Shown here piece by piece: positions 5,728 through 56,225 of a DNA stretch of 56,622 nucleotides; within the stretch, counting starts at the first letter, position 1, and each line of letters starts with the position of its first letter. Source of the DNA: a virus (Duplodnaviria; Caudoviricetes); the IMG/VR virus record IMGVR_UViG_3300043399_000099, positions 1 to 56,622 of that record. The stretch is one strand, 5' to 3'. The translations under genes were made by a program, and so were the position numbers. Below the pieces are notes generated by a model that saw nothing but the letters and a program-made list of their open reading frames with translations, was not told the DNA's origin and did no database searches.

Positions 5728-5799
5728 CCACTACCTCACCCACATCATAGCACTGCATTAACCCCTACGGGGGTTTTTGTCGTTAGTGCAAAGCACTAG

Positions 5800-5824: not shown

Positions 5825-5857
5825 GCATCCCCTTTAGGGGATAGATTGGAGAACGAT

Positions 5858-5929
5858 ATGCGATACTGGATGCTTGCCCTAGCGGCATATGGCTTGTGCC
5901 TCACCCTTGCCTATGCGTTAATGACATGA
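5858..5929 (+). CDS. 23-aa hydrophobic micropeptide MRYWMLALAAYGLCLTLAYALMT
   Basis: SD GGAG 6 nt upstream; ATGA overlap with the next ORF; not in the ORF track. Confidence 0.55.
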   Translation: MRYWMLALAAYGLCLTLAYALMT

Positions 5930-6135: not shown

Positions 6136-6136
6136 T

Positions 6137-6409
6137 ATGTGGAATGTAGTTATGGCAAAGGTGTGGATGTCGTTTGTGTGTCTTGAGTGGGAGCGTGAGT
6201 GCAATGGCATTATGCAGCACCTGAGTGTGTCGTTGTATAATGATGGGCCTATGGCTGTGCGTGTGACCTGCACCACTCCCGTCAAGGCTGACGAGTCCCG
6301 CTTCAAGCGCACCTTTGAGATGGGTGAGATGGCCCGCCGCTACCTCAAGGATGACGAGTCCCTTGATGACCTGTTCAACCACGTATTCTTTAACGGAAAG
6401 GATTGCTAA
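6137..6409 (+). CDS. Hypothetical early protein
   Basis: SD AGGAGG before ATG 6137. Confidence 0.75.
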   Translation: MWNVVMAKVWMSFVCLEWERECNGIMQHLSVSLYNDGPMAVRVTCTTPVKADESRFKRTFEMGEMARRYLKDDESLDDLFNHVFFNGKDC

Positions 6410-6410
6410 G

Positions 6411-6683
6411 ATGCTGATCACGATGAAATCCCAGATGACTGGTGTGATCCACACCAAGGACATCAGCATGACCCAAGACCAGTATGATGACTGGCTGATG
6501 GGTGCTGACCTGATCCAAGATGCCCTGCCCCACCTGTCTGACAGTGAGCGTGAGTTCCTGATGACGGGGATCACTGACGAGGAGTGGGATTCTTTAGCGG
6601 ATTCCCTCACGCTGGATGATGACTATGATGGGTGGGATCACGAGGATGACCCGTCAGAGGATGATATGCTTTGGACTACCTAA
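6411..6683 (+). CDS. Conserved acidic phage protein
   Basis: SD AAGGA; LIQDALPHLS..EREFLMTGIT.EEW motif. Confidence 0.75.
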   Translation: MLITMKSQMTGVIHTKDISMTQDQYDDWLMGADLIQDALPHLSDSEREFLMTGITDEEWDSLADSLTLDDDYDGWDHEDDPSEDDMLWTT

Positions 6684-34037: not shown

Positions 34038-35086
34038 TATTGTCCTAGCCCCATGTTCTCGTCCACTATACTATCAAGGGTGGACTCTGCAGTACCAGTG
34101 ATAAGCCCCTGAAGCTCTTCCTCTGTATCAGTGGGGTTAACTGGGACTACAGGAACTACAGGTGCTGGTGGGGGTGATTGTACAAAGCTTTCTGCAAAAG
34201 TCTTAGGGTCTGTTAAGACTGCATCAAAGTTGTCTACAAGAGCTTGCGCCCCGATATTACCTACAGTAACTGCAGTACGAATTTGATCTGTCACGAAAGC
34301 AGCCGCCTGTGTTGGGCTTAGGGTGGATTGTGGAGAGTAAGCTAATTCTCCTGCACGTTGTTCAGCCAACGCAAACAAGTTTGCCACCTCAGGTGCAGCA
34401 TTACTTGATACGGTGATATCCCCAGTACGCTCATTTACGGCAAAAGAGTCTGCGAACTGAGTCTGCAAAGCGGATGCAATCTGATTTTTCATAGCCTTGG
34501 TGTCAGTGAAGTCTGGGCCAGATACATAGTTAAAGTTCAAATCAAGGGGTTCCATTGGGGTAACCCCAACAGGGGCATAAACCTCTGCACCAAAGCGTCT
34601 TTGCAAATCTTCTACACTAGTAGCACTATAGATAGCTTCAGCCAGTGCCTCAGCAGATTGTTCTGGGTCTGTCGTATCTCTATCAGTAGATACACCATTG
34701 ATAAGAGCGGTTGAGATAACTTCATCACCAGCCTCTTCAAGGTACTTAGTGACAGTTAGGTTTAGGTCTTCAACATACTTCTTGTCAACTTTTTTATTCT
34801 TCTCGTACTGGTCAAGGAAAAGACTAAGCTGACCTGTACGCTGCAAAACTAACGCACTTGTGTCTGTTAGGCCAGCAATAATACCTGCAGAAAGTTCTGC
34901 TTGCATAGCAGCCTTTGTCGCTGTCTTTTTTGCAAGACGCTCAATATAACGATCCTGATAGGCTGCAAGTAGAGTCTTTTGATACTCTTCTCTCTTGAAT
35001 GCGTAGGCTCTATCTTCAGTCTCTTTTGCAGCTTTCTGATCAAGAACATACGTCAAGCCTTCGTTTATACCCTGCCAAAAACCCAT
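34037..35086 (-). CDS. Putative internal virion protein
   Basis: 349 aa; position in the ejection-protein block. Confidence 0.65.
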   Translation of the reverse strand: MGFWQGINEGLTYVLDQKAAKETEDRAYAFKREEYQKTLLAAYQDRYIERLAKKTATKAAMQAELSAGIIAGLTDTSALVLQRTGQLSLFLDQYEKNKKVDKKYVEDLNLTVTKYLEEAGDEVISTALINGVSTDRDTTDPEQSAEALAEAIYSATSVEDLQRRFGAEVYAPVGVTPMEPLDLNFNYVSGPDFTDTKAMKNQIASALQTQFADSFAVNERTGDITVSSNAAPEVANLFALAEQRAGELAYSPQSTLSPTQAAAFVTDQIRTAVTVGNIGAQALVDNFDAVLTDPKTFAESFVQSPPPAPVVPVVPVNPTDTEEELQGLITGTAESTLDSIVDENMGLGQ

Positions 35087-35586
35087 TACTTAACTCCTCT
35101 TGACATCAGACCCTTAGGCTTTTCTACTGCAACTCTTTCCGCAGGTGAAACTTCCAAGACTTTTTTAGGTGGATTCTTATCCATTTGTTTAATCATTTTC
35201 TTGGCTAAGCCAGTGTTCTTCGCCTTGTTATACTCAGCCTTCTCTTCTTTATCCTCAAACCCATCATCAGGGTTAAGTCCAAAGGCAATAGCACCCTGCT
35301 TGATAAACTCATGGATCACAGGGGAGATCAGTAGCGCAACATCAATAGAGTGCATACCCTTAGATACAGCACCACGCATGATGCCATTGGTAATGCTCAT
35401 TACATCTAGCTCATCTACCTCAATCAGATCAAGGACACCATCAAGCATCTCTGGATCAGAGAGACGAGCCAAGTGCATTTGGATTGCTTCTTCTGGATCA
35501 ACAATCTCTGGGGGACGTTCCCAAGGAAAACCTTTAGGTTCTGTAGTCAAAGATTGACCGGGGATAGGCGCACTAAACATATCCAT
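35086..35586 (-). CDS. Conserved virion-associated protein
   Basis: APIPGQSLT.EP...PWE.PP; C-terminal KGLMSR. Confidence 0.7.
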   Translation of the reverse strand: MDMFSAPIPGQSLTTEPKGFPWERPPEIVDPEEAIQMHLARLSDPEMLDGVLDLIEVDELDVMSITNGIMRGAVSKGMHSIDVALLISPVIHEFIKQGAIAFGLNPDDGFEDKEEKAEYNKAKNTGLAKKMIKQMDKNPPKKVLEVSPAERVAVEKPKGLMSRGVK

Positions 35587-35588
35587 TC

Positions 35589-36269
35589 TTACTCTCCAGA
35601 AATCTTATTGTATCTACGCAACCAGTCAGACTGGTATCTCTCAGCAGTAAGACCATTGTTAGCAGCCAAAGCTTCTTCACTCATCTTACCAGAAGGGTTA
35701 CCAGTAAACCAAACAACAGGAACTTTTGTAACATCGTTGTTGTTCGCAGCGAGAATCTCTTGCACATACTTTGCAGCTACGATATCTTGAACTTCTGTAG
35801 GTGCTTCCTTGGCAGTCTTATACTCAGTGCCAACACCATACTTACTTGACAAACTTCTCCACGTGCTATCAATAAATTGGTACCCCCCAGAGGCAGAGCT
35901 TTTAGGGTTCTTAGCACTATAGTCTCCACCAGACTCTTTACTCTTGAGTGCGGATAGAATACGTCTGATACCTTTATCTGTCACATCAGCAGAGATAGAA
36001 CCTGCCAGTTTGTTTGAGGTAGTACCTTTAGGTGATCCTGCAGGAGTAGTCGGCATCTGCTGTCTTTGTTCTGCAACAGGTGCAAATACATCACGAGAGA
36101 AGCTCATGTACTGTGGCAATAGGTCATCGAACTCTGAGAGCTTTTGCTCAGTCTTTGCCATGCGAGAAGCAAGACCAGCACCAGCCCTTACGTTTTCTCC
36201 AGAGGCAGCCGCAGAACGAATCCTTTCCACAAGGGAAGCTGCACTCTTGTAATTTTTACTATAGTCCAT
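35589..36269 (-). CDS. Virion protein with lysozyme-like / lytic transglycosylase domain
   Basis: ESGGDY.A.N..SSASG.YQF..STW...QD motif. Confidence 0.85.
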   Translation of the reverse strand: MDYSKNYKSAASLVERIRSAAASGENVRAGAGLASRMAKTEQKLSEFDDLLPQYMSFSRDVFAPVAEQRQQMPTTPAGSPKGTTSNKLAGSISADVTDKGIRRILSALKSKESGGDYSAKNPKSSASGGYQFIDSTWRSLSSKYGVGTEYKTAKEAPTEVQDIVAAKYVQEILAANNNDVTKVPVVWFTGNPSGKMSEEALAANNGLTAERYQSDWLRRYNKISGE

Positions 36270-36284
36270 TGTTATCCCTTAGTA

Positions 36285-38063
36285 TTAGAAGCCAAAAATA
36301 AGCTTGGTAAAGAAGCTGGCTTTAGCTGCACTTTCTGCAGCTTGTTCTTTTTTCTTGGCCATCAAAAACTCTGCGGCTCTTTCTTTCTCAGACTCAAGTG
36401 CAGTAAAAGCAAAGGCCATGATGTCACGTTCTTTCTGCCAGACTTGATCTAGAGCTTGGCTAGTCAAAGCGTTCTTAGTCTTAGCTGCTTCCATGTTTGC
36501 AGTATTCTGTGCAGCAGTGTTGAGAGTAACAGTATTCTGTCTCCACTGTGCGTTAGCCTGAGCAATAACCAAAGAGTTAGTAGCATTAAACTGGTCACGC
36601 TGTGTCTCTAGCTGAGCATTAAACTTCTTGGTAGCATTAGTTTCACCAGCATTGAATTGCTTGATGGCATTGCTTTGCTCTGCATTGAAGAGGCTTACAC
36701 GGCTAGTTAGGTCTTCAAAGAATTGATTAGTCTGATTCTCACTCGAAGCATTGAACTGTGCTGCAGCGTTCTTTGCTGCTTGATCTGTAAGCAATGCCTG
36801 AATGTTAGACTGAGTGCGGAACATAGCAGTCTGTTGTTCATTACTAACATTCGTCAAGTCCATCTGCAAGAACGACTGTGCATTCTGAACAGCAGCTTGC
36901 TGACGATTGCTTAGGTTAGCTACATCGAGGTTAGCAAGGGCAGCAGCCTGAGCCATCACCATAGCTTGACGATTATTCAGATTCTCCAAGTTCACCGTGT
37001 TGACAATACGGCTGTTCTCCATCGCAATGTTTTGTTCTGCGGTGAAGTTCATGTTAGCAATGTCTGAAACCTTAGCGGCATTCATAACACGAGTCTGGAA
37101 GTTCTGGTCAAACTCTTGGCCGAGGAAGGTAGCACGTTGTTGAGCAGCAAAGATTGCAGTCTGCTGTCTATTGGAAAGGTTCTGTCCCTCGAACTGTGCA
37201 AAGGTACTAGCATCAACCTGAGCAATAGGTAGCGCAGACTCCATAGCAGCCTGAATGACAGCCTGTCCAGCTAGGGATGAAGCACCAAGCCCACGAGCAA
37301 CCAGAGCAGCGTTAGCAGCCCGCATAGCCCCTGCTGCCCATGCTGGTGTCTCACCACCTTCAAACTGTTTCATCAATCCTTCAAGCTGACCTTGTACAGT
37401 AGCTTGCTTAGAAGGAGTAGCTTCGGCTGCTTGAATGCTTTCGGATAGCTTATTAACTTTGGCTGCATCAACAGCAGAACCAGAGATAATTTCCCCTTCT
37501 TCCACCTTACGCTGCACAGGGTTATTCATAAGAATACCTGTACCTTGTTCAGCCTTTAGGCCCTCTAGAGAACTCTCAGTTTGCTGTGCAGCTTTAACTA
37601 TAGCACCCTCGGTCACAGCACCTACAACAGGCTGTAGTGCCTCTGTCTCTTTCTTAACTTCAGGGGCAGCAGTAGTAGCCTGTATCAAGCTGGCAGGAGT
37701 AGGAGCAGGAGTTGCTGCTGTAGTAACATCTGCGATAGTGGTAGGAGTTACTTCTGGTGTAGCTTCAACTTTACCTGCATTGGTATCAATAAGAGTCTCT
37801 GGGGTAACTGCAATGTTAGCTACAGCAGCTTGTTCAGTGAGGCTCTCTGGGTTACGGATAACTGCTTGAGAAAGTTCATCACCTGTAGATAGACCACCAA
37901 CAGCCATACCTGTACGTTTCTGCAAGACACGAGTGAACTTACCCATACGTGCTGCTGCACCGGGATTGGACGATAGGAAAGCTTCCATCATCTTAGGGTC
38001 TGTTGGCCCATTGTAGCCCATCTGTGTGAGCAAGTTATGCTGCTGTTGGGGATTAAAGTCCAC
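36285..38063 (-). CDS. Gln/Ala/Asn-rich helical ejection (pilot-like) protein
   Basis: NLSNRQQ and QFNA 11-residue-type repeats. Confidence 0.7.
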   Translation of the reverse strand: MDFNPQQQHNLLTQMGYNGPTDPKMMEAFLSSNPGAAARMGKFTRVLQKRTGMAVGGLSTGDELSQAVIRNPESLTEQAAVANIAVTPETLIDTNAGKVEATPEVTPTTIADVTTAATPAPTPASLIQATTAAPEVKKETEALQPVVGAVTEGAIVKAAQQTESSLEGLKAEQGTGILMNNPVQRKVEEGEIISGSAVDAAKVNKLSESIQAAEATPSKQATVQGQLEGLMKQFEGGETPAWAAGAMRAANAALVARGLGASSLAGQAVIQAAMESALPIAQVDASTFAQFEGQNLSNRQQTAIFAAQQRATFLGQEFDQNFQTRVMNAAKVSDIANMNFTAEQNIAMENSRIVNTVNLENLNNRQAMVMAQAAALANLDVANLSNRQQAAVQNAQSFLQMDLTNVSNEQQTAMFRTQSNIQALLTDQAAKNAAAQFNASSENQTNQFFEDLTSRVSLFNAEQSNAIKQFNAGETNATKKFNAQLETQRDQFNATNSLVIAQANAQWRQNTVTLNTAAQNTANMEAAKTKNALTSQALDQVWQKERDIMAFAFTALESEKERAAEFLMAKKKEQAAESAAKASFFTKLIFGF

Positions 38064-42727: not shown

Positions 42728-44701
42728 TTACTGCCTGTCGTTATTAAGATACTCGATGGTGATAGCGTCCAAAGAGAAAGGAGGTGTTATGCTGGAGAAA
42801 TTATACTGAAGACTTATAGTGAACCCAGAGCCAACCATCTGGGATGTAAACGAGTAGGTCAGTCTACCTCCGTATGTTGCAGTCCCGTAGGTAGCTGCGC
42901 CGTAGAAGAAGGAACTGTCCGCAGTGTTTTCCAACACGATCTGTGGGGGTTGGATCACACCAATCTGACTGAAGTTTAAGTTTGGGTTAACTGTACCAGA
43001 GATAGAACCTTCTGGGTTAACGTAGGTGGTAAGTTTATACAGAGTTTTCCTAACTCTAGGATCACTCAAAGGTAAGTGTGGAGTAAAGTACTGTGCAGGA
43101 ATAGCACTTCCATCAAAGCTGTTTCCAGATTCTAGGTTGTACACATAACCATCTTTATTAGCAAAGATAATCTTCTCCGAGGAGTCTACAGAGGAATAGA
43201 TACCATCTGCAACATAAGCAAGGATACCATTGATTTCCGCCCAAGCCATACCTTGTGCCGTTTGGTCAGCAAACTGTGTAGCGATAACACCCACAGAAGT
43301 AGCTGCTGTTCTATTCGTAGCATACCCAAAAAGTCTATACTGGTTTTTACCACGAATAACACAAGAAGTAAAGCTGGTATTTGAACTTACAAGGTTATCT
43401 ACTTCAGATTGGATTGGACGAGATGCAACTGCAAAACCAAAGTCACCAATTCTATCTGTTGCGCTAAGAAGTCTAACACCATCTGGCCCAAGGAAAGCAA
43501 TGTCACCACCAACTTCTTGAATGGTATCTGTTCTAACGCAACCAATGTCAGCAGAGATAGGCTGTAGTTGGAAGTCTGAGATAGTATTACCAACAAGTCT
43601 GTGTATCTGGTTTGTGCTAAAGATGATTAGCTGTTCACGAAAAACAATCAGACCTGTAACTGTGTGGGTCAGGTTAATAGTGCCAGCACCATTTGCAGGA
43701 GTAAAATCAGTATCTGTATAAGGCGCAGTGAAAGTTAGGTTTGTACCCTTAGCAAAGAACAAGTGGTTCTTAAACTGTACTACGTGAGTAGCACCAATAA
43801 CATCTGAAGGTGCGCTAGTGATTGTTGAGTAGGTAGAGTTAAAATATCTGAAAGGTCTATTAGCACCATCGACACCAACAAGAGTGGGAGTACCTGTGAA
43901 GTTATAGCGTTCAAACCTCATCTTCGTGCTGTTAGGACGGCCAGAGTTAATGAAGGTGATAGCTGCATTATCAGTTGGCGAAGATGCAAGTGCAGGGGAG
44001 ATTGTCAGAGTTGCACTGCCAGAAGTCACAGTAACACTGTTAGTGATAAGGTAAACTTTCTGTACACCTGAGATAGTAAAGGTATCACCTTGTTGTGGGA
44101 TATCTGTCAACCCATCAACGACGAGACTTGTACCTGTTTGGCTTCCACCATTGACAAGCACAGTGCCGTAGGAAGGAGTATTGATCTTTGTCCAACCTGT
44201 ACCTTCGGACGACCAAAGATTACTACCACGAGCAGCAATAGCTTTCTGCCCAAAGTATACAAGACCCTCGATCAGGCTTATGTTATTACCAAAAGTAACC
44301 GCTGCCTTATCTGCAGGAGAGGAACTCAGGGCGAGGTTAAGTGTAAGATCAGCAGTTCGGGCTGTGCTATTAAAAGTTACAGCAGATACACTATACGTAC
44401 CAGTTACCCCTGCGATAGTTATGGTATCACCCACAAGAGGTGTCTCTAGTATGTTTGCAATAGTGAGGGCTGTACCTGTCTGACCACTGCCTTGTACGAG
44501 GGGTTGACCATAAGGGGGGACATAAGCAGTATCAAACTTTGTATAGCCTAGGATACGCTTATAGCCACCCTCGATAGAAGGTTCAAAGTTGACTAAACGT
44601 CTAGCCGATCCCGGAGCAGTAATACCTTGTTGAAGTGGGGAGATGTTTGTGACAAGACCCCCTTTAACTTCAATAGGATAAGTTTCCCATGCTGTTGGCA
44701 T
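42728..44701 (-). CDS. Tail tubular protein B / nozzle
   Basis: GGL.T, NFEP...GGY.RI.G, IGC...TIQE.GGD..FL..DG.R motifs. Confidence 0.8.
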   Translation of the reverse strand: MPTAWETYPIEVKGGLVTNISPLQQGITAPGSARRLVNFEPSIEGGYKRILGYTKFDTAYVPPYGQPLVQGSGQTGTALTIANILETPLVGDTITIAGVTGTYSVSAVTFNSTARTADLTLNLALSSSPADKAAVTFGNNISLIEGLVYFGQKAIAARGSNLWSSEGTGWTKINTPSYGTVLVNGGSQTGTSLVVDGLTDIPQQGDTFTISGVQKVYLITNSVTVTSGSATLTISPALASSPTDNAAITFINSGRPNSTKMRFERYNFTGTPTLVGVDGANRPFRYFNSTYSTITSAPSDVIGATHVVQFKNHLFFAKGTNLTFTAPYTDTDFTPANGAGTINLTHTVTGLIVFREQLIIFSTNQIHRLVGNTISDFQLQPISADIGCVRTDTIQEVGGDIAFLGPDGVRLLSATDRIGDFGFAVASRPIQSEVDNLVSSNTSFTSCVIRGKNQYRLFGYATNRTAATSVGVIATQFADQTAQGMAWAEINGILAYVADGIYSSVDSSEKIIFANKDGYVYNLESGNSFDGSAIPAQYFTPHLPLSDPRVRKTLYKLTTYVNPEGSISGTVNPNLNFSQIGVIQPPQIVLENTADSSFFYGAATYGTATYGGRLTYSFTSQMVGSGFTISLQYNFSSITPPFSLDAITIEYLNNDRQ

Positions 44702-45978: not shown

Positions 45979-47052
45979 TTAAGCTAGGTTGTACTTTGCA
46001 GTTGCCAGAGCTTCTGGGCGCAGAATCTTACGACCATACAAGTGCATACCACGGATGATGTCTGCAAACGAGTCAGGATCACGGTAGGTTTCGGTCTTGT
46101 TGATCTGCTCAGCGGTAGCTACAGCCGAGTCATGACCAGCAACGATCACACCGTAGTTTGCGTTCTGGTTTGAAACGCCAGTCGTAGCAGCACCCGTACC
46201 AACCGAAGGCAGGTTGTTCGAGACGTACACACGGAAGCCGTTCCAGTTCGTCAGAACCAGACCATTACGCAGAGCGCCCGAATCACCATAGTCAGCATTC
46301 AGGAAGCGCGAGTCTTCGTCCATCAGTACTTCCATCAGAACGGGGTCGATCACGATCCAACGGCCAGCCTTATCGACATTCTGTTGATCCAACAGACGGC
46401 CCATACGGTTAATCAGCATGACAGGCGATACGTACTCGGTAGGAAGAGCAGTAGCACCGGGCAGACGAGCAGCCACAGGGATCGAGTGGTCACCCTTCGA
46501 AGCAGTCGTGATGTTGCCGAAGCTATCCTTACGGAGCTTCATCGAGGTCAGCAGTTCGTCGGAACCAGCAGTCGTGATAGCCTTCGTGCCATTCACAACG
46601 TCATTGACAGCGTTTGCGTTCGAACCCGAAGCAGTCTGCTTGTAGCCCGACAGGTAGCCCAGAACTTCTTGGTCATGCTGGTCAGCCAAGCGGTAAGCCG
46701 CACGGTTGGTAGCCAAGTCCATGAAGTTGACATGCGAGTGAGCTTCTTCGATGTCGTCGATCTTGAATGCAAAGTAGTTAGCTTTGTCGATCACCAACGA
46801 GAAGTCAGCATCTTGCAGGTCTTGTGCTTGCACCTGAGTGCCACGAGCATAGGACGATACCGAGATTTCAGGCTCTTTGATAATACGAACAGTATCACCC
46901 TGAGCAGCGATCTCACCGAAGTAGTCCGAATTAGTAATATCGCCAACGATGGTTGCTTTACGGAAAGCAAGTTGGACTTTTTTGGAATAGATAACCGAAG
47001 AGAAGTTACCATTTGGCAAGTTGCCATAACCAGCAGCAGATTGGAAAGCCAT
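45979..47052 (-). CDS. Major capsid protein
   Basis: IYSKKV...ITN.DY.GEI...GDTV.I, E.YRDPDSF.D..RG...YG.K.LRPE motifs. Confidence 0.92.
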   Translation of the reverse strand: MAFQSAAGYGNLPNGNFSSVIYSKKVQLAFRKATIVGDITNSDYFGEIAAQGDTVRIIKEPEISVSSYARGTQVQAQDLQDADFSLVIDKANYFAFKIDDIEEAHSHVNFMDLATNRAAYRLADQHDQEVLGYLSGYKQTASGSNANAVNDVVNGTKAITTAGSDELLTSMKLRKDSFGNITTASKGDHSIPVAARLPGATALPTEYVSPVMLINRMGRLLDQQNVDKAGRWIVIDPVLMEVLMDEDSRFLNADYGDSGALRNGLVLTNWNGFRVYVSNNLPSVGTGAATTGVSNQNANYGVIVAGHDSAVATAEQINKTETYRDPDSFADIIRGMHLYGRKILRPEALATAKYNLA

Positions 47053-47291: not shown

Positions 47292-48155
47292 TTATCTTGC
47301 ACCACCACTCATATCGTAAACAAAAGTACCCTTTTGCATTGCAGCTTGAATACGCTTTTCCATTTTAGCAAAAGTATCCATACTCATCTTAGCAACATCA
47401 GACTCACTGATAGTCTCATTACCACCATCCAAGTCCACACTCGCTTTACTCTTTGTAACAACAGACGATGCAGCTTCTTTGGCACTAGCTTTTTTAGCTG
47501 CGGGGTTCAAACCTTTGTCAACTTTGTACAGGTCGATAACACGAATGACAGCACGAGCATCTTCTTCATTCTCATAAAGAACATCTTGTACCCACTTTGG
47601 TTGTTCATCTGCCCAATCATGGAAAGCATCTGACTTACGTAGATCATCAAAATCAGGGTGGCTTTCACGAATAGTATTGAGAGCTTTATTGCGAACAGTC
47701 TCAGCACTCAGTTGTTCGTACTCAGTAAACTGCCGTTCATACTTCGAGAGTTGTTCAGCAGCTTTCTTGTTAGCGATAGTCTCCACGATAGAAGCTACGT
47801 CAGGATACTTACGCGCCCACTCTGCGATATCTTCATCAGACTTGGGAGGAAGAATAGGGCTATTGTCTGGCTGGGCTTTAAGCAGTTCGAACTTCTTCTC
47901 CCACTCTTTTTCCTTTTCAGACATATGACGACGAAGATCACCATAACGCTTTTTAAACGAGCGTTCCTCTGGGTCTGTAGGTTCTACTTCTGCAGCAGGT
48001 TTCTCTGCTTCAGTTTTAGCTTCTACAGGTTGATCCTCTTCAGGTTCCTTACCCTTCATTAGATCATTTAGTTCCTTCTCCGAGTCTGCAATACGTTGCC
48101 GATTACGGCGCGAAGAAGAAGAGTTTGGGTCTACGTAGACTTGAGTGATAGCCAT
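47292..48155 (-). CDS. Scaffolding protein
   Basis: FKKRYGDLRRH motif; charged helical protein upstream of MCP. Confidence 0.8.
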   Translation of the reverse strand: MAITQVYVDPNSSSSRRNRQRIADSEKELNDLMKGKEPEEDQPVEAKTEAEKPAAEVEPTDPEERSFKKRYGDLRRHMSEKEKEWEKKFELLKAQPDNSPILPPKSDEDIAEWARKYPDVASIVETIANKKAAEQLSKYERQFTEYEQLSAETVRNKALNTIRESHPDFDDLRKSDAFHDWADEQPKWVQDVLYENEEDARAVIRVIDLYKVDKGLNPAAKKASAKEAASSVVTKSKASVDLDGGNETISESDVAKMSMDTFAKMEKRIQAAMQKGTFVYDMSGGAR

Positions 48156-48196: not shown

Positions 48197-51100
48197 TTAT
48201 TGTTTTCCGCCAAGACCTTTTGACTTGGGGTTAGTCTTCTTTGGTTTAACTACAAGACCGCCTTCAGCGAATCTTTCAGAGCCGGGTCTTCCTGTGACAG
48301 GCTTAGGGGTAGGTCTAGGGCCATCTACTCCACCACCAAGGCTAGGTTTAGGGGTAGGCTTAGGGGTAGGTCTAGGGCCATCTACTCCACCACCAAGGCT
48401 AGGTCTAGCAGGGGTCACTATTCTATCCTTGTTTGAACTTCCCCCAACAGAAGAAACTCCACCACCCCCACGGGTGCCTGTACCTTCTCTACGTTCATCT
48501 GCAGATTGCCCACCAAAACTCTTTGCAGCAGGTGCAGCAGCAGGAGTTGTCGTCACAGGAGAAGCGGCAGGTGCAGCAGCAGGAGTTTGTTTTGCTTTCT
48601 CTTCAATGGCCCTCATGTAGGCATTACCAGTACCCGCAACTTTAGAAAGTACCAAGCCTTGCTCTAGTGGAGAGATTTGTGCAACGTAAGCTTTAACCTT
48701 TTCAGTCAGTATCTTATAGTTTTCACTACCAGTAAGACCTTTAGATTCCATAATTTTCAAAGCAGCATTTGCATTTGCAATATTTTGAATGTCTTTATCT
48801 TTTCCTGTAAGGATGCCGATAAGTCCACCAGCCAAACCTTTTGAATCAGCTTCTTCTTGAGGCTGAAGAGCATTCATCCCAAACTCAAAAGGGTTACTGG
48901 TGATAGCATTGTAGTTTTGGTCTGCCCAAGAAGAGTATGCAGCAGAAGGGGTTGTATCTCTCTTATTGTCATCTCTCGATTTTCTTGAAGATTTTGGTTT
49001 TGTCGCACCTTTATTAGCGTCATAGGTATCTTGCAAGAATTGTGTCCAAGGAACAAAACCCGCAGGGATACTTCCCATTGCTGTACCAGACATGAAACTG
49101 ATGTTTGTTTTTTCACCTGTAGTAGGGTTAAAGTAAAGACGCTCTTCAACAGGACTACCTACACCAGTACTACCATAGTTAGGAATTGTAAATTCTGTGC
49201 GGTCAAACGCAACACCGCCCTCAGCCATACCAGATGGTAGAGACATAGCTTGTGCCAGCATCTGTTCTTCTTCAGGGGTAAGCTCCTCGTCTTGCCCTTC
49301 CACAGGTACACCGCTATCATCTACAGGAACACCACCAATGCGTCCCTCAGACTCCATCTCCATCATGCCTTGCTTAGCCTGAGCGCGTAGGTCTTCGAAG
49401 AACCTTACACCATAATAACGCAGCACATCTGCAGGCACAACATATTCTCCGCCAGACAGCTTTGCATCTACATTATCACGAACTTCAGAAGCCAAAGCTC
49501 CGGGAGGGATGTTGTTGCCAGTTACAGGTTCTCTTGACATACCATCATCGGCCATGCCACCCTCTTGCATTAGTCTGTTCATCTGTTCGTCCTCTACCAT
49601 GCCACCTTCGGCGTATCTGGGTTTAGTAAAATCAAATCTAGTTTTAGCTTCACTGATATCAATAGCTGTTCCGGGGGTATCTACTGGAAAAGTTTCACCG
49701 TAGGTATTTATAGCATCCCTATACGCGTGTTCTTTAAAAATCTTGTACCAGTCGTCCTTATCCTTATTAGCATAGTTTATCTCCCTTCGATAGACACTTA
49801 TAAAGTCCTCATACTGATCCTTTGTAAGACCTGACTGGCTTAAGAATTTTTCAAAGGTGATCTTATCCTTATAATAGTTACCAAGGAGTTGAGCAGTCTG
49901 CATATCTTTTAAAAAAGACTGTGCTATGTTCTCAGGAAGTCCTGTGTATTCTTTAGACTTCTTTTTATTAGAAGCCATTGGTGTAGTATTTCGCGTTTCT
50001 TTAGAGACTACTGCCCCAGTCTGTTTTGCTAAGTCTGCAGTAGCTTTTTCAAGTCCGATTACATATGTATTGTAAAAATTTGATCCGGGATTGACAGCCT
50101 CAAAAAAAGCAAGAGAACCCGGTGCATATCTTTCTGCAGCAAGTTGTTCAATAGAAGGTATAAACACCTTGTCTACGTTAGAGTCTTGAGCATACCCAAG
50201 TACACCATCAAGAAGGTTTTCCACGGAGTCTTTAACATCTCCTATAGGAAGTTTTGTAGTGCCTTTGTTTTGTTTTTTATTGACCTCATCTGAAACACCT
50301 TCCAACTCGTAGATGATGTTGTTAATCCTATGGATGTCCACTCCTTCAGAACGTAGCAGGTTTTTAAAATCTTGCCTTACTTCATAGTCTACATATGGAG
50401 TTTTAGCGTAGGTTTCAAATATATTAGTAATGGCATTTTTTGATACTTCTGAGAGATCATCGGTTGGCCCGTCTTCAAGGTCTTTAGTAAGAATCCTTGA
50501 GAGTGCTTCTTTTTTTACTGCATCTGCGTCTTTTGCAGGCGTAGCTCTACTTGCACCTTTTTGCAGGTAGTCACTCTGAAATTCGTAAACAACTACTTCT
50601 TTGCCCCCAGTTTTTATATTCTCTTCTGTACCTATTCTTGTGTGTGCGACTACATCGTCTGGAAAGTGATATTGTCCAAACTTCTTTTTACTTTCTTCAG
50701 AGAGTGTAAAAGTAGGTAGGTCAGAGTTTTTCCTGTTTACGCGCAACAGAAGTTCTTTATACTCACGTTTAGTTGGGTCATACTCTTCATAATCTCGTAC
50801 TTGAACACCCTCGTGTTTTGGTAGAGCTAAAACCTCAATCTTAGTCTCCCAAGTATTTGGTTCAATGGTAGTGAGTAATTCTTCCTTTGAGTAAGATTTA
50901 TTTTTGTCTATCCCAAGATCAACAGTGTTATACTGAGCAGCCTTTGTAGAGGGAGACTTGTCCAAAAATTTAATAAACTCAGAACCTTTTAGGCCATTTT
51001 TTGGAAAGGTGATTTCATCAACAACATCTACCACTGGATTTCTGTAGGTGATATTAAAGGTCTTTTCAAACCTTTTCCTATCGAACTTTCCGCCATAAAT

Positions 51101-52102
51101 TTTGTTTTTATTTAAGAACTGTTGATAATCCTCAACAGGTTTAGCTATCTCAAAAAGATCAAGGTAGTGTCTGAGTGCTGTGTTCTCATTTTCATACCCC
51201 CTAGACTTAAGGCCCTCAGTATCAAAAGTTACACCATAGTCCTTTTTTATTTCCTCAAGAACCTCTGGACTAGAGTAACTTTTATCTGCCATCTCTCTGA
51301 TAGTTGAAACAGGTATATCCCCAAGATTTGAAAAAGGTATAATACTGTCTCTTGCAAAAGAAGATTCCATGTCTGCAAACACTGAGCTTGATGGGGATTT
51401 TTCAAAATTCTCATACTTAATGAGTTGCTCTTCTGGTACAGTGTAACCCCTAACAGGTTTCTCAAACTTACCCTCAAAGAATCTACTAGTTTGTTTCTTT
51501 GTAGGAACTTCTCCTAAAGCTTCCCTAGTTTGATTTGCGCCTAAAGGTAGTGGCAAACTACCAGACTCATCTGCTATGAACTTCCTTGCAGTCTGGGCCG
51601 CTTCTGGAAAAGCATCAACAGCGCCCTTAGCCACTAGCCCAACGCCTTTAACAGCAGGGATAACTCCCGCTACGGTCATCACATCACTAGCAACAACTTC
51701 TCTTGCTTTAGTCACCTGATCAGGAGTAGCCTCTTCATAGCTTACTCCGTACATACGGTTTAGTTTTTCATCTAGGTCTTCTGTAGCAACTCTTTTGATA
51801 CTGCCAGCAGTGTCTTCAACGATTCCCTTGACACCTTCATAAGGATTTCTAACAAAATCTACAATGCCCTGTGCAAGACCAGTAGCCATATTCCCTAGTG
51901 TGCCATAGGTGTCTTCTCTAAGGGCTTTCTTTAGAGTTTCACCAGTGGACTCATACTCGTTATCAAGACCGTAGATGTTATCAAAGAAAAGGTCTGAGTA
52001 AGACAAACCTTTTTGTTCTGGTGTCTCTGCCCTAGCCTTTAGGTACGCGTCCCTACGATTTGACGGAGAGAAGGCACTCTGTGTTTGCTCATTTTGATCC
52101 AT
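48197..52102 (-). CDS. 1301-aa mosaic head-region protein: ExQSD-motif domain plus AEGG/GEYVV virion module
   Basis: Between portal and scaffold; HF..AHTR..EFQSD; YAEGG..D.V.A.LS.GEYVV; Pro/Gly-rich tail. Confidence 0.75.
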   Translation of the reverse strand: MDQNEQTQSAFSPSNRRDAYLKARAETPEQKGLSYSDLFFDNIYGLDNEYESTGETLKKALREDTYGTLGNMATGLAQGIVDFVRNPYEGVKGIVEDTAGSIKRVATEDLDEKLNRMYGVSYEEATPDQVTKAREVVASDVMTVAGVIPAVKGVGLVAKGAVDAFPEAAQTARKFIADESGSLPLPLGANQTREALGEVPTKKQTSRFFEGKFEKPVRGYTVPEEQLIKYENFEKSPSSSVFADMESSFARDSIIPFSNLGDIPVSTIREMADKSYSSPEVLEEIKKDYGVTFDTEGLKSRGYENENTALRHYLDLFEIAKPVEDYQQFLNKNKIYGGKFDRKRFEKTFNITYRNPVVDVVDEITFPKNGLKGSEFIKFLDKSPSTKAAQYNTVDLGIDKNKSYSKEELLTTIEPNTWETKIEVLALPKHEGVQVRDYEEYDPTKREYKELLLRVNRKNSDLPTFTLSEESKKKFGQYHFPDDVVAHTRIGTEENIKTGGKEVVVYEFQSDYLQKGASRATPAKDADAVKKEALSRILTKDLEDGPTDDLSEVSKNAITNIFETYAKTPYVDYEVRQDFKNLLRSEGVDIHRINNIIYELEGVSDEVNKKQNKGTTKLPIGDVKDSVENLLDGVLGYAQDSNVDKVFIPSIEQLAAERYAPGSLAFFEAVNPGSNFYNTYVIGLEKATADLAKQTGAVVSKETRNTTPMASNKKKSKEYTGLPENIAQSFLKDMQTAQLLGNYYKDKITFEKFLSQSGLTKDQYEDFISVYRREINYANKDKDDWYKIFKEHAYRDAINTYGETFPVDTPGTAIDISEAKTRFDFTKPRYAEGGMVEDEQMNRLMQEGGMADDGMSREPVTGNNIPPGALASEVRDNVDAKLSGGEYVVPADVLRYYGVRFFEDLRAQAKQGMMEMESEGRIGGVPVDDSGVPVEGQDEELTPEEEQMLAQAMSLPSGMAEGGVAFDRTEFTIPNYGSTGVGSPVEERLYFNPTTGEKTNISFMSGTAMGSIPAGFVPWTQFLQDTYDANKGATKPKSSRKSRDDNKRDTTPSAAYSSWADQNYNAITSNPFEFGMNALQPQEEADSKGLAGGLIGILTGKDKDIQNIANANAALKIMESKGLTGSENYKILTEKVKAYVAQISPLEQGLVLSKVAGTGNAYMRAIEEKAKQTPAAAPAASPVTTTPAAAPAAKSFGGQSADERREGTGTRGGGGVSSVGGSSNKDRIVTPARPSLGGGVDGPRPTPKPTPKPSLGGGVDGPRPTPKPVTGRPGSERFAEGGLVVKPKKTNPKSKGLGGKQ
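48300..48404. repeat. 48-bp direct repeat, two copies (48300-48347, 48357-48404), encoding PSLGGGVDGPRPTPKP
   Basis: Directly visible. Confidence 0.9.
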
Positions 52103-52289
52103 CTACATTCACCTTGTCACGAAGTTTTTGTAGTTTGCGTAGGGCAAGTAGTTCTCCCTGAGCGCGATATACCTCAATAGGGTCTTTCACCTGTTCCAGA
52201 GTTTTATAACACAGTTGGATCATAGTGTCAAGTTCTTTGAGGAACTCTGGCCACAGCTTAGGGTCATTCACAAGAAGCTTTAGACTCAT
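52089..52289 (-). CDS. Small conserved protein after the portal
   Basis: YRAQG...LR.L..LR motif. Confidence 0.75.
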   Translation of the reverse strand: MSLKLLVNDPKLWPEFLKELDTMIQLCYKTLEQVKDPIEVYRAQGELLALRKLQKLRDKVNVDGSK

Positions 52290-54367
52290 TGCATAGCTCC
52301 ACCAGTGTTGGCACTAAAGCCCTGCTCTCCGGGAACAGGCACAGAGCCAGTACCCATGTTACCACCACCAGAGCCAGTAGTATCCTGAGCCTGCACTCCT
52401 GCGGGAGCCTGTTGCCCTTGAGGAGCCTGAGGCTGTTGTGGTTGAGATGCTTGGAAGGTCTTAAGGATTTCAGCTTGGATAGCTGCACGTTGCATAGAGT
52501 TCGATACCTTATCAGGATCAAGCTCCATCGACTTGGCAATCTCACGAACAATGTAATCCAGTCGAGCAAAGGGTGCAAGCACTGGGTTTTGTACAACACT
52601 AAGGAACTGCATCAGACGCTGAGAACGTACTTCATTGGCCATCAAAGACTCAGTACCAGCAGCCTTCACCTCTAGGTCACCCTTAATCTCTGGGTCAAAG
52701 TCAAACTGCATGTTGAAGCTAAATAGTGCCTTACCAAGTGGGGCCAATAGATAATCATCAATGTTCTTCACTACAGTGCGGATAGAGCCGTTAGCTGCTG
52801 ACATAAGCATAGAGATACCAGAAGCGGTACGACCTACACCAGAGATACCTGTCTGTCCATGTGCAAACGAGGGGAAACCAGTAGACTCATCCGCCAAGAC
52901 ACGAGCCTTGTCAAACATCTGCATATTCTCGTTAGACACGTTAGGGAACTTTGTACCAAAGATAGCTTGTCCCGGAGCGCCACCTTGACGACGAAACACT
53001 TTTCCGGGGTAAACTGTAAGGTCTTGTCCGGGAACCAGATTGGTTTCATCTACTTCAATCAGTAAGTTACCGCTAAGTGCTGCGTTATCTACAGCCATAC
53101 GCATGAAGCCATTCATCAAAGTCTGAGTGTCGTCCATGTTCTCAGCAACGCCTACACCCCACATGGAGTAAGGGTTGACCTCATAAGGAACAACAAAGAA
53201 TGGGATAATGCTGGGGGTAAAGGGGTTAAGGACTAGACGTAGGATACGGCCATTGCAGAGCCAGATGTTTACAGCAATATTGTCTTTGTCTTTCAGTTCT
53301 TTGGGGATATCGACTTTGTGTTCTTCAAGAGTTTTTCTTTCGACATTACCCCAGAACTCTAGAACCTCGAAGCGTTCAGTGGCAACTTGCTGAGCAGAGT
53401 CTTCCATTGCCTGCTCCCACCACTCTTTAGTGTAGCTAGGGCCAAACTTAAGTGCAGTCTCAATCTCATTCTTACGGAAGAAGGGGCGTTTGCCTAGCTT
53501 ACGCAATTCGCTGTAGGACATCTTATGACGCTCAATAGCGTACTCAGCCTCTTCCATATTGTGTGCGTCCGGGTCAGGGTAGAAGTTCCAAACGGATACA
53601 TTAGATACCATTGGTACAGTTTTGATAGTTGGTGAATAGGTACCTTCATCATCCCACTTGGGGTATTCCTTATCTACAGCAAATGGCCCCTTCATAATGC
53701 CAGTACCAAACAGGGCGCACTCTAGAGCAGTAGCACGAAGATGTTTGTTTGCCGAGGATTCTTCCAACTGATCATGGATTTTCTTTTCCATCTTCTTAGC
53801 TGCAATCATAGCAGGCTCGAAGGTGACCTGTGTAGGAGTCATACCGGGGCCACTACGAACTTCTTGAATAGGGCCAAGTTCATTCTTCATAGAACCAATA
53901 CGTTCCATGTAAGTCTGCATGGTTTCTCCGGGAAGCAGCGGCTCAATACCAACAGCTTTCTCGGCCTTCTTAACCTCGTCGTTAGTCTCAATGTGGAATG
54001 ACTCGACTACACCTTCTGGCAAGGTCGTAGGGTCAATAACAATCGGGAACCTACCATTACCAAAAAGAACTTCAGACATTTGACCATAGGCAGCAAGCAC
54101 CTTAGTCTTAGTCACCTTTACAAATACACGAGACTTTTCCGAGTTGTTAAACTTTACATCTTCACCATAGATACCACGATAATTTTTGTATGCGGTAATC
54201 CAGCGAGTCTCTTCTGTCTTACGGGAAGTTTCTGCTTTACTGAAACGCTCCTCAACATATGCTACGATACCACCAGCAGGTTTATCTAGAGGTGTATCCC
54301 CAGAGGTATCTTCTACAGCCAGCATCTTAATGCCATCAGTCGAGAGGTTGTCTTCTTCCATCTTCAT
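52286..54367 (-). CDS. Portal protein
   Basis: S.VFVK.TKTKV.AA, GTG..KGP, W.FYPDP, RTASG.SML motifs. Confidence 0.92.
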   Translation of the reverse strand: MKMEEDNLSTDGIKMLAVEDTSGDTPLDKPAGGIVAYVEERFSKAETSRKTEETRWITAYKNYRGIYGEDVKFNNSEKSRVFVKVTKTKVLAAYGQMSEVLFGNGRFPIVIDPTTLPEGVVESFHIETNDEVKKAEKAVGIEPLLPGETMQTYMERIGSMKNELGPIQEVRSGPGMTPTQVTFEPAMIAAKKMEKKIHDQLEESSANKHLRATALECALFGTGIMKGPFAVDKEYPKWDDEGTYSPTIKTVPMVSNVSVWNFYPDPDAHNMEEAEYAIERHKMSYSELRKLGKRPFFRKNEIETALKFGPSYTKEWWEQAMEDSAQQVATERFEVLEFWGNVERKTLEEHKVDIPKELKDKDNIAVNIWLCNGRILRLVLNPFTPSIIPFFVVPYEVNPYSMWGVGVAENMDDTQTLMNGFMRMAVDNAALSGNLLIEVDETNLVPGQDLTVYPGKVFRRQGGAPGQAIFGTKFPNVSNENMQMFDKARVLADESTGFPSFAHGQTGISGVGRTASGISMLMSAANGSIRTVVKNIDDYLLAPLGKALFSFNMQFDFDPEIKGDLEVKAAGTESLMANEVRSQRLMQFLSVVQNPVLAPFARLDYIVREIAKSMELDPDKVSNSMQRAAIQAEILKTFQASQPQQPQAPQGQQAPAGVQAQDTTGSGGGNMGTGSVPVPGEQGFSANTGGAMQ

Positions 54368-54379: not shown

Positions 54380-55828
54380 TTAGTAACCAAAGGTCAAATC
54401 AGCAATCTGAGAATCATAGTTGCTGTAGCTTGTATCCATATCAAACATGCCAGTACTTGGGCGAGTCATTACACCGTACCGCAGAGCATCGTAGAGGTGG
54501 TCTTCAGAGTTTGTATCCACATCTTCAGGGTTAGACTTGCTGAGGGGTATAGAGGGTAGCTGAGAGATCAGGTTTCGGCATGTATTAAAGATAACCATAC
54601 GGGGTTCTTCCGTATACTCATCTATCTGTAGTCTTCTATGTATCTCGTTCTTACCTGCGATGCGTGATCCACGGCTTCTATCTGCAGGTCTCCAACGGCA
54701 TCCCTTAAGGATCATACGTTCTGCAATACTTGGGCCAGTGTCACCACGCTTGTGCCAGAGAGAGGAGTCAAGTACACCATAACGAATCTTTTCTCCATAC
54801 TCTGCACGAAGTACTTGGTCAGCCAAATCCTCTGCCAAAACTTTAGATACATAAAGTTCTCTATACACAATCAACTGACCACTAGGAGCAACAGCAAACC
54901 ATACAATACCACTATAAGAGCTATAACCATAATCTGCTGCACGGAATCTTGGCCAATTACTTGGGATATCAAAAGGTTCAATCGTATGTATCTTGCGGTT
55001 AAACTCTGAGAATGCTGCACCTTCTGCTACATCCCAGTTGCCTTCAAGAAGTTGTTTACGTTGATGCTCAGGTAGAGACATCAGGTTAGCTTCGTACATC
55101 CCATCTTCGGCAAGGTATGGGTTATCATAAAGAGTAGCAGGAATAAACCTGCGTTGAAACAATGGCTCACCAGCACGAACATGGTTGTCTGGCCACTTAA
55201 GTATCTCACCTGTTTCTGGATCAATGGCCCAAAAAGCTTTACCCGGTTTTGCAGGGTCGATGAAAGCTTTCTTTACCCAACCATGTCCAGCACCACCGGG
55301 GTTAGTTGTTGCTCTTTGGTATAGTTTTAGTCCACTTGCTTTGGTAGTACGCAAACGAGAACGCATGTAGTTCCAAGCAAAAGGACTAGCCCACTGTGTA
55401 AGCTCGTCGAAACCAATCCAGTTGTACGCTTGGCCCTGATAGCGAGTAACGTCATCATCAGCATCAAGGTAACTCATCCAGAGTGTTGCACCAGATGGGG
55501 CTACCCAAGTCTTATCTCTCTCAAGAAACTTAATTCCGGGGATAGCCTTGGGGTACAACACTTTCGAAACAGACACAAGTTCCCTAAGTTCTTCCGTAGA
55601 CTTACGAACCAGAAGCATCTTAGCGTGTTCGTTGTTGAGAAAGCGTACAGGGTCTGCTAACATAGCATAAGATTTACCACCACCAGCAGCACCACCATAC
55701 AAAACTTCTTGTTCATCAGCAGAAAGAAAGGCTGTTTGAGGGCCATCATTAGGCTTAAAGATTACTTCTCTAGCCTTCTTTTCGTCAATCTGCTGTGGCT
55801 TCGGCTGTGCTGGTACTGTTAGTTTCAC
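54380..55828 (-). CDS. terL: Terminase large subunit (GTG start at 55828 inferred; frame open to 55945)
   Basis: YGGAAGGGKS, FDEL, TTNPGG, DYGY, EDH.YDALRY. Confidence 0.93.
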   Translation of the reverse strand: MKLTVPAQPKPQQIDEKKAREVIFKPNDGPQTAFLSADEQEVLYGGAAGGGKSYAMLADPVRFLNNEHAKMLLVRKSTEELRELVSVSKVLYPKAIPGIKFLERDKTWVAPSGATLWMSYLDADDDVTRYQGQAYNWIGFDELTQWASPFAWNYMRSRLRTTKASGLKLYQRATTNPGGAGHGWVKKAFIDPAKPGKAFWAIDPETGEILKWPDNHVRAGEPLFQRRFIPATLYDNPYLAEDGMYEANLMSLPEHQRKQLLEGNWDVAEGAAFSEFNRKIHTIEPFDIPSNWPRFRAADYGYSSYSGIVWFAVAPSGQLIVYRELYVSKVLAEDLADQVLRAEYGEKIRYGVLDSSLWHKRGDTGPSIAERMILKGCRWRPADRSRGSRIAGKNEIHRRLQIDEYTEEPRMVIFNTCRNLISQLPSIPLSKSNPEDVDTNSEDHLYDALRYGVMTRPSTGMFDMDTSYSNYDSQIADLTFGY

Positions 55829-56225
55829 CTCTGGTTGCTGCTCCACCGACTCTGGCTTCAAGCTTTTCGGCTTTCGAGATGGCTTCTTTGTACCTTTCGG
55901 CAAAGTATCTGTGTGTTGCAGCTTCTGTCTTACGCTTGTACTCAAGTTTAATCCTCTTATACAGACCTACGTGAGAGATTACTCTTCCACTCTGTTCACT
56001 AAGCCAAGCTGCTACTGCACGATATGAGTAACGCTTAAGGTGTTTCTTTGCTTGTTCAAGAAGTTCCAATTCCTTAACGACAGGAAGCAGAACATCCTTA
56101 TCTTCTGTGTCTTCTACATACCCAAAAGGTACTTGTCTACCTATACGAACAACTGGCTTCCACTCGAAGTGGTCACCATGATCTGTAGGTTTAGGTAGCT
56201 TCCATTCTTTTTTGATTTTTGTCAT
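55785..56225 (-). CDS. HTH-like protein (recombinase DNA-binding-like PFGY motif), probably leaderless
   Basis: VPFGY...SYR.VA.WL...GR.ISH.GL. Confidence 0.7.
   Translation of the reverse strand: MTKIKKEWKLPKPTDHGDHFEWKPVVRIGRQVPFGYVEDTEDKDVLLPVVKELELLEQAKKHLKRYSYRAVAAWLSEQSGRVISHVGLYKRIKLEYKRKTEAATHRYFAERYKEAISKAEKLEARVGGAATRGETNSTSTAEATAD

Follow-up and report, generated by a model that had tools for sequence, protein, structure and literature searches.

The DNA analysed here, called the window throughout, is a complete virus record of 56,622 bases (IMGVR_UViG_3300043399_000099; CheckV completeness 100%) from an HMO-2011-type marine podophage, which shares 66%, 63% and 70% identity with HMO-2011 in TerL, portal and capsid protein, respectively. 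We describe gene X, an open reading frame (ORF) of 1301 amino acids (aa; protein P0001) in which an exchangeable cassette bearing a domain called ExQSD is followed by a conserved C-terminal half that opens with a module called MOD. The late region lies on the minus strand in the order TerL, portal, orf66, X, a 287-aa ORF and the capsid gene, and then the tail genes. Gene X was found where the initial annotation had placed it, between the portal gene and the 287-aa head gene, and the coordinates given there for the ORF, its AT-rich middle, a motif series within it and a YAEGG joint were all correct (Table 1).

Table 1. Genes, modules and motifs of the window, with nucleotide (nt) identity to the related loci L008 and L004.
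Feature	Positions	Strand	Identity to L008	Identity to L004	Basis or remark
TerL gene	54380-55945	-	91.2%	87.3%	late region
Portal gene	52286-54367	-			PHROG phrog_332/1216
orf66, 66-aa ORF overlapping portal gene and X	52089-52289	-	100%	88.6%	in every related locus spanning the site
Gene X, 1301 aa	48197-52102	-			ORF call; N-module + cassette + MOD + tail
N-module, aa 1-182	51557-52102	-	97.1%	80.8%	adaptor-like, conserved
Exchangeable cassette, aa 183-830	49613-51556	-	0/1944 nt alignable	89.5%	AT-rich middle
ExQSD core, aa 346-720	49943-51067	-			most widely conserved part; invariant residues, homologue alignment
GNAT-like structural alignment span, aa ~417-830	49613-50854	-			structure model (model residues 218-631), with helical insertions
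Motif series YKELLL...HF...AHTR...EFQSD, Y448 to D511	50570-50761	-			
Junction motif PRYAEGGMV, aa 828-836	49595-49621	-			constant right-hand recombination break
YAEGG joint, aa 830-834	49601-49615	-			
MOD region, aa 831-1025			93.7%	79.3%	
MOD, aa 835-930	49313-49600	-			family's most conserved segment; GN.IPPG, SEVRD, LS.GEYVVPADV, FFEDLR, GRIGG
Conserved stretch, aa 965-1025	49028-49210	-			model; confident beta-hairpin (aa 985-1004) and FVPWT motif
Helical subdomain, aa 1052-1172	48587-48949	-			pLDDT ~80-97
Second variable low-complexity stretch, aa 1123-1272	48287-48736	-	83.8%	no similarity	Pro/Thr/Gly-rich, SLGGGVDGPRPTPKP twice in tandem; no nt similarity to L011 or L012
C-terminal tag RFAEGGLVVKPKK...KGLGGKQ, aa 1277-1301	48200-48274	-			motif type ends 98/199 related proteins
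287-aa gene, scaffold position	47292-48155	-			scaffold role only putative; phrog_13678, a family with no assigned function
Major capsid gene, P22-type	45979-47052	-	92.3%	88.8%	PHROG scan
657-aa tail protein	42728-44701	-			
ORFs of 1140, 349, 166, 226 and 592 aa	30615-38063	-			
Run of small basic ORFs	609-2626	-			
76-aa ORF within that run	1091-1321	-			

The genes around X are tightly packed: the portal gene overlaps orf66 by 4 nt, orf66 overlaps X by 14 nt, and 41 nt separate X from the 287-aa head gene. The comparison set comprised 29 related IMG/VR loci that were retrieved. The order TerL-portal-orf66-X-287aa-MCP (major capsid protein) was kept in 32 related loci wherever they spanned it, with 37-86% identity for the 287-aa gene in the loci reaching it. 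When 50,697 GenBank phage records were searched by tblastn, 14 matched, all of them HMO-2011-type marine podophages, and none covered 80% of X.

Comparison of the nucleotide sequences of close relatives shows that residues 183-830 of X are a recombination cassette (Table 1). Against L008 the N-module and the MOD region align closely and the cassette does not align at all, and against L004 the pattern is inverted, the cassette being the best-conserved portion of X. With L008-like flanks and an L004-like cassette, the X of the window is thus a mosaic. A swappable middle joined at YAEGG to a conserved C-terminal module had been proposed initially. The mosaic and its breakpoints bear out a discrete exchangeable cassette, and full-length collinear conservation in all relatives was not seen, the cassette being replaced in close ones. 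The right-hand break falls at residues 827-844, at PRYAEGGMV, in all five loci without the window's cassette (L008 and L011-L014), and their left-hand breaks fall at residue 1, 28, 44 or 182. The portals of these loci are 92-95% identical to that of the window, and the slot is occupied by a divergent ExQSD allele (25% identity) in L008, by a cassette with an HELQH zincin signature in L011 and L012, and by both ExQSD and zincin cassettes in L014; in L013 it is empty, the gene beginning MDNLMQEGG... and leading straight into MOD. Similar replacements are seen at the protein level. The tail of P0053 is 100% identical to that of X (276/276) and its MOD 98%, against 26% for the core, and P0054 shows 91% identity in the N-module, 83% in MOD and 84% in the tail, against 25% in the core. 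Among 54 pairs with portals at least 90% identical, 27 had cores below 40% identity (minimum 24%), with a median of 95% for MOD; these pairs come from 36 loci with a near-full portal and the domain, some of them from the same contig, and are not all independent.

The AT-rich middle was recovered, with a GC content of 0.353-0.413 in 300-nt windows over ~49550-51500 against 0.43-0.53 on either side (by codons, 0.377 for aa 183-830, 0.454 for aa 1-182 and 0.470 for aa 831-1301). Heavy use of AAA and AGA codons had also been claimed for it. This held for AAA, which makes up 44/66 of the Lys codons in the middle against 99/265 in nine other structural genes (Fisher p=2e-5); for AGA the excess is weak (10/27 of the Arg codons against 44/222 in other structural genes, p=0.049), and the flanks of X use AGA likewise (4/9 and 12/22). 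The GC content at third codon positions (GC3) is nearly level along X (0.306 in the middle against 0.352 in aa 1-182 and 0.312 in aa 831-1301), so that amino acid composition, rich in Lys, Asn, Glu and Tyr in the middle and in Gly, Ala and Pro in the flanks, accounts for much of the dip. Foreign origin was for this reason rejected as the cause of the low GC. The cassettes of L008 and L011 do show a lower GC3, 0.268 and 0.230 against ~0.31.

In gene X, two proteins are joined that in most relatives come from separate genes next to the portal gene. A scan of IMG/VR with an alignment of stand-alone homologues found 169 stretches that encode a relative, of which the best 80 were kept; the core was present by tblastn in 78 of these, on which the locus counts rest. 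ExQSD and MOD share a single ORF in 24/78 loci, the arrangement of the window, and ExQSD is a separate gene of 470-600 aa in 50/78, where it begins at the end of the portal gene and is followed by the orf66 homologue and then by the MOD gene. MOD was not seen in four loci, three of them cut by the locus end. The portal gene lies immediately upstream of ExQSD in 70/78 loci, and the remaining eight have no more than 245 nt upstream. ExQSD is the commonest portal-adjacent accessory gene of the group and not an occasional payload, and the alternation between fused and adjacent genes argues, by the Rosetta-stone principle, that the ExQSD and MOD proteins act together. One locus, L033, has a 1055-aa ExQSD ORF directly after the portal gene (3490-6654), with no MOD detected in the ~3.3 kb downstream. 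As for orf66, which is 48-100% identical in every related locus, overlaps its neighbours and matches no family, it lies between portal and X in fused loci and between the ExQSD gene and the MOD gene in split ones. It may serve the MOD protein as a chaperone or adaptor.

MOD itself is far more widespread. Among the matches listed there were 2828 MOD-containing clusters at 90% identity, 1662 of them of 30-714 aa and 1166 of 715-2277 aa, and MOD forms the N-terminus of the stand-alone short proteins: 104 of the 120 short ones listed begin with it within 15 residues (median length of these, 486 aa). The predominance of this short form indicates that MOD plus tail is the universal gene and that the N-terminal extension is optional. 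The architectures were tabulated for 199 proteins, a biased sample gathered by cassette and MOD searches: ExQSD-MOD (83), ExQSD only (32), N-ExQSD-MOD (31), MOD with unknown upstream sequence (18), LPD/zincin-ExQSD-MOD (10), LPD/zincin-MOD (8), N-MOD (7), N-LPD/zincin-MOD (6) and others (4). HMO-2011 gp49 and CRP-603 gp62 begin with MOD and are without ExQSD. The locus of CRP-738, which shares with X only the N-module and MOD, is split: gp39 carries MOD, and gp40 (835 aa) joins an N-module (33% identity, E 2e-28) to DUF7178. The N-module heads LPD23-zincin alleles as well. Gp40 (L001, 4941-7448) adds a third type of passenger to those seen at this locus, and the phage that has it is in culture; its DUF7178 match has an E-value of 5.4e-24 and is preceded by DYGAGLG, which by eye resembles motif I of S-adenosylmethionine-dependent methyltransferases.

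An exhaustive phmmer search with residues 200-830 retrieved 94 representative proteins at E<=1e-3, which share a common core of residues ~350-710. The 132 proteins that cover the core are ~25% identical overall, and eleven residues are invariant in all of them: Y404, Q434, P619, P649, R658 and Y680, together with H479, R489, E507, Q509 and D511 of the motif series that had been read from the sequence at the outset. G370 and H487, the latter also in that series, are kept in 131/132. Eleven invariant residues at this level of identity point to an active-site or ligand-site pattern rather than a spacer. None of 46 cassette homologues scanned matched Pfam at E<=1e-4, no Pfam, PHROG or NCBIfam model matches the domain, and no informative family was found for P0001 and its parts in Pfam, NCBIfam or PDB sequences (phmmer; profile for PDB). 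A sub-threshold Pfam match of P0001 to T5_p143 (16-17.6 bits, cut-off 27) falls in a helical insertion and was disregarded. By these sequence comparisons ExQSD represents an apparently enzyme-like domain family without a previous name.

The AlphaFold2 model of the cassette, built from a 69-sequence alignment, has a mean predicted local distance difference test score (pLDDT) of 87.8 and a predicted template modelling score of 0.82. Foldseek gave no match to it at E<=1e-3 in the PDB, and 47 of the best 50 rows of the structural comparison were of GNAT type, judged from their titles. Among BFVD structures there were 18 matches at E<=1e-3, to large proteins of uncultured phages, several of them named 'large polyvalent protein associated domain-containing'. 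The ESM Atlas returned only unnamed viral clusters, with scores of 0.83-0.87, below the 0.9 level of a lead. The initial guess of a GNAT-like domain thus gains support at the level of the fold and not from sequence profiles. Judging from the model, ExQSD probably adopts a GNAT-like fold; that its chemistry is acyl transfer is a reasonable possibility, to which we would give slightly less than an even chance.

The C-terminal half of X (aa 831-1301) is a universal protein of HMO-2011-type phages and is largely disordered. It consists of the ~95-aa MOD, two small folded subdomains, long disordered linkers rich in Gly, Pro and Thr, and a basic C-terminal tag of the form hydrophobic-A-x-G-G-L-V. 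Its model has a mean pLDDT of 64, with 177/476 residues below 50, and so it looks extended and non-globular; a structural search with the helical subdomain at aa 1052-1172 gave no informative match. Resemblance of the LS.GEYVVPADV module to tape-measure proteins, suggested initially, was weakly borne out. This segment is aa 882-893 and falls in DNVDAKLSGGEYVVPADV (aa 876-893), and the sole family match of the C-terminal half is to the tape-measure family phrog_3547 (aa 875-1141, E 1.1e-5 to 1.3e-6). Among GenBank phages outside the HMO-2011 group, the only matches were eight records of mycobacteriophage tape-measure proteins, over 33 aa and non-significant (E 0.08-0.09). The C-terminal half may be an extended protein of the head interior or of the ejection type, expressed along with the prohead genes. 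The predicted complex of the portal (693 aa) with residues 826-935 of X scored 0.00 in two runs without controls, which counts neither for nor against binding.

The motif at the joint recurs through the family. The 199 related proteins contain 355 YAEGG-type motifs, where 50 shuffles gave a mean of 5.7, and a hydrophobic-A-x-GG-(L/M/I/V/T) motif forms the C-terminal end of 98/199 family proteins and the internal junction in fused forms. Likewise, all 27 stand-alone ExQSD genes inspected, picked from the 50 to avoid obvious duplicates, end in ...(K/Q/T)GGLV.RP.K. Its presence at junctions and C-termini, far above shuffled expectation, marks the motif as a module-end signature, and neither it nor the near-invariant motif series can be put down to chance. 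It may be a docking tag, a cleavage site or only a recombination linker. At the DNA level the junction reads GAAGGTGGC ATG ... GAGGACGAACAG ATG. Conservation of AEGG as the ribosome-binding site of an internal start was rejected as the main explanation, because C-termini bear the motif too, where no start codon is close. Met841 (49580-49600, minus strand) is invariant, serves many stand-alone MOD proteins as their start and is preceded in the window by GAGGACGAACAG; translation may conceivably initiate internally there, so that the fused gene would also yield MOD protein on its own. The only other site of the window with the junction or tag motif is the 76-aa Lys/Pro-rich ORF, with three GMA(K/Y)GGMA repeats. 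It sits among small, very basic ORFs rich in Lys and Ala (159, 76, 60, 126 and 97 aa), which may be packaged or DNA-binding proteins and would fall upstream of the terminase genes if the record were circular.

The tail genes are of podovirus type and include a phrog_10775 tail protein and the 657-aa protein, which matches phrog_5107/1302. The best PHROG match of the latter is phrog_5107, labelled 'amidase' (E 3.8e-48), and it also matches distal-tail and internal-virion families; it is probably a tubular tail B-type protein, and the 'amidase' label may mislead. The five-ORF cluster at 30615-38063 has a sole family match, that of the 226-aa ORF to the transglycosylase family phrog_4067 (E 1.2e-9), and probably encodes T7-type internal virion proteins.

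We favour, while giving it an even chance, the reading that X is a head-associated carrier of the polyvalent type with an exchangeable enzyme passenger. X would be co-translated with the portal protein and orf66, and its C-terminal half would bring it into the prohead. It would then leave the particle with the DNA, so that the enzyme would arrive early in the new host and could there alter a target, of host (or phage) origin, by transferring a group to it. The accessory passenger would consist of the N-module together with the cassette, and its core, as modelled, would be enzyme-like with a GNAT-like acyltransferase fold. Counter-selection by the host would make the cassette give way to highly divergent alleles or to different modules, such as LPD23 with a zincin peptidase, through recombination at the conserved junction motif. 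A wider proposal, put forward more tentatively, is that HMO-2011-type phages maintain, next to the portal gene, a hyperplastic locus for payloads, in which MOD plus tail, the GGLV-basic tag, or both would act as a new, non-MuF device for capsid targeting and delivery of exchangeable enzymes. The chief of these would be an unrecognised GNAT-derived family with a His/His/Arg/Glu/Gln/Asp/Tyr site, whose alleles would be swapped among near-identical phages as targets or inhibitors of host immunity.

Several observations weigh against the carrier reading. A literature search found no virion proteomics for HMO-2011-type phages that would place X in the particle or show its ejection. ExQSD is in most loci a separate gene without MOD (50/78), so MOD cannot be its general carrier, and the C-terminal GGLV-basic tag is a candidate signal only. 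The genome already encodes a further set of probable internal virion proteins, one of them transglycosylase-like, so X would be an additional and not the sole internal protein. No GNAT or acetyltransferase profile matches P0001 in Pfam at E<=1, and PF00583 gave 0 matches in six frames of the whole genome, while 14/14 control genomes were positive. The canonical acetyl-CoA pyrophosphate loop of GNATs is Q/RxxGxG/A after strand 4. It was not seen by inspection after the putative strand 4 of ExQSD (KEVVVYEFQ), which is followed by the family consensus QSDLLQ.G..KP. None of the 14 matching GenBank records aligns to the cassette at E<=1e-5, and the ExQSD domain is thus known only from metagenomes.

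The main rival to the carrier reading is that ExQSD is a morphogenetic enzyme, acting on head proteins, scaffold or packaged DNA during assembly in the producer cell and never delivered. The gene directly after the portal gene holds the classical position of the prohead protease or scaffold in HK97- and lambda-like phages. ExQSD sits in this position, portal-adjacent in 70/78 loci and mostly as a stand-alone gene (50/78), and the hydrophobic-AxGG motif at module ends and C-termini (355 against 5.7; 27/27) could be a processing site. We nevertheless consider this unlikely: ExQSD is dispensable, being missing from HMO-2011 gp49, CRP-603 gp62 and L013, its fold likeness is to transferases, and no known protease family matches, no prohead protease or peptidase family having been found for P0001 in Pfam, PHROGs or NCBIfam. 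Moreover, alleles only 24-30% identical occur in phages with portals 95-97% identical, and since an enzyme bound to conserved head substrates should co-evolve with them, such swapping counts against a morphogenetic role. Alternatively, X might be purely structural, an internal head, plug or ejection protein in which the variable middle, a spacer or binding domain without catalytic activity, would differ for reasons of structure or of the host envelope. The extended, disordered C-terminal half is like that of tape-measure and ejection proteins, MOD weakly resembles a tape measure (phrog_3547, E 1.3e-6; tape-measure proteins, E 0.08-0.09), and GNAT folds occur also as non-enzymatic domains. Eleven invariant residues across 132 sequences at ~25% identity, and the HExxH zincin signature of the alternative cassettes, make a purely structural role more doubtful still.

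Two further explanations carry much less weight. One is that X belongs to a polymorphic toxin system of MuF type, serving competition between bacteria like the prophage-encoded MuF toxins, with the cassette as the toxin. Gene X does follow the portal gene and its modules are exchanged at a conserved linker motif, but the claim made at the outset that the system is non-MuF stands, since Phage_Mu_F was found in Pfam neither in the whole P0001 at E<=1 nor in three parts of it at E<=0.1. The variable part is, moreover, N-terminal and central, and X is followed by the 287-aa head gene (37-86% identity) and by no variable immunity-like gene, which leaves such a system very improbable. The other, that two genes were joined only artificially, through chimeric assembly or an error of sequencing, is hardly credible. 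Although the two parts are separate genes in most relatives (50/78), the full-length fused ORF occurs in independent contigs (whole in L004 and L005, and as the C-terminal 979 residues in L006), P0002 is 91% identical over aa 200-830, and fused forms are found in 24 loci and among the 1166 protein clusters of 715-2277 aa. Simple read-through cannot explain the fusion either, because in fused loci orf66 lies upstream of the fusion and not between its parts.

Should the carrier reading prove correct, a highly abundant marine phage group would carry unnoticed, rapidly exchanging virion-associated enzymes, and the delivery and anti-defence role proposed for X would open a direct way to study the conflict of early infection in hosts that are ecologically important and hard to culture (SAR116, Roseobacter RCA). 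To this would be added a new enzyme-like family (94 or more representative clusters at 50% identity; 169 IMG/VR stretches that encode a relative), a new carrier module with 2828 listed clusters at 90% identity, and a junction or terminal motif that marks module boundaries, much as linker motifs do in polymorphic toxins. The mosaic structure and the new domain family are well established, and the minimal gain is that the 'hypothetical proteins' between portal and capsid in this group can be divided into named modules with mapped recombination breakpoints. HMO-2011-type phages are one of the dominant phage groups of the ocean (PMC9038755, in part). The passages searched in that comparative paper do not discuss gene X (PMC9038755), and literature searches combining HMO-2011 with polyvalent, MuF, hypervariable or effector gave no mention of HMO-2011 among the matches listed.

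Among known systems, tape-measure proteins (phrog_3547) weakly resemble X in the LS.GE(Y/F)VV.A region and share its extended disordered architecture, but X belongs to the head module of a phage with podovirus-type tail genes. GNAT enzymes act in phage-host conflict, as does AcrVA5, an anti-CRISPR acetyltransferase of GNAT fold. ExQSD shows no sequence similarity to such conflict enzymes as Mu Mom (8bv8) and the tRNA-acetylating toxins AtaT/TacT (6gtp, 7ak7) and differs from them by large helical insertions; it also differs from GNATs in that the canonical acetyl-CoA loop was not found, and its pattern His-x7-His-x-Arg ... Glu-x-Gln-x-Asp is not a known GNAT signature. The internal protein locus of T4 is hyperplastic and is freely replaced among close relatives, presumably under pressure from host defences. 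T4 Alt and the internal proteins IPI-III are accessory proteins that the head takes up and that enter the host with the DNA, a route that X may share (for Alt, excerpts of PMC5512222). In T4 an N-terminal capsid-targeting sequence is cut by the prohead protease, whereas neither such a sequence nor a protease is evident for X, which has the C-terminal GGLV-basic tag as a candidate.

MuF polymorphic toxins were reportedly treated by Jamet et al. in 2017. Their polarity is the reverse of that of X, where the variable part is N-terminal and central (aa 1-830) and the conserved part C-terminal; unlike them, X is followed by a conserved 287-aa head gene and not by an immunity-like gene. MuF systems occur in Firmicutes, whereas the hosts of the X group are marine alphaproteobacterial lineages. 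MuF effectors (SPP1 gp7 / Mu gp30), as presented in the excerpted source, are like X in lying downstream of the portal gene, with only the 66-aa ORF between in the case of X, and in combining a conserved virion-associated part with exchangeable enzymatic parts (PMC5512222).

The closest likeness is to the phage polyvalent proteins, which the same excerpts describe as carrying zincin and LPD domains and sometimes GNATs, as encoded with portal-terminase genes and as predicted to be packaged and to act early (Iyer et al. 2017, PMC5512222). Like these large, shuffled multi-module proteins beside portal-terminase head genes (PMC5512222, in part), X has 1301 aa and at least four modules and lies between the portal and capsid genes. 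Its allelic proteins contain LPD23 in 14/43 cases at E<=0.01, eight of them above the Pfam cut-off, and a DUF6782/Peptidase_M78-like zincin in 3/43; LPD23 and the HExxH zincin in alternative cassettes tie the locus to the published class, which has LPD23, zincin-like metallopeptidases and, among its listed enzymes, GNATs (PMC5512222, as excerpted). P0001 itself differs in being without an LPD or any other Pfam domain beyond the sub-threshold T5_p143 (E<=1), and its GNAT-like domain is a new sequence family, distinct from the RimI-like GNATs of the excerpted descriptions (PMC5512222). The anchors named in these excerpts are MuF, portal and DarA (PMC5512222), the putative ones of X being MOD plus tail and the N-module, and the X locus is further distinguished from the polyvalent class by its sharply defined junction motif.

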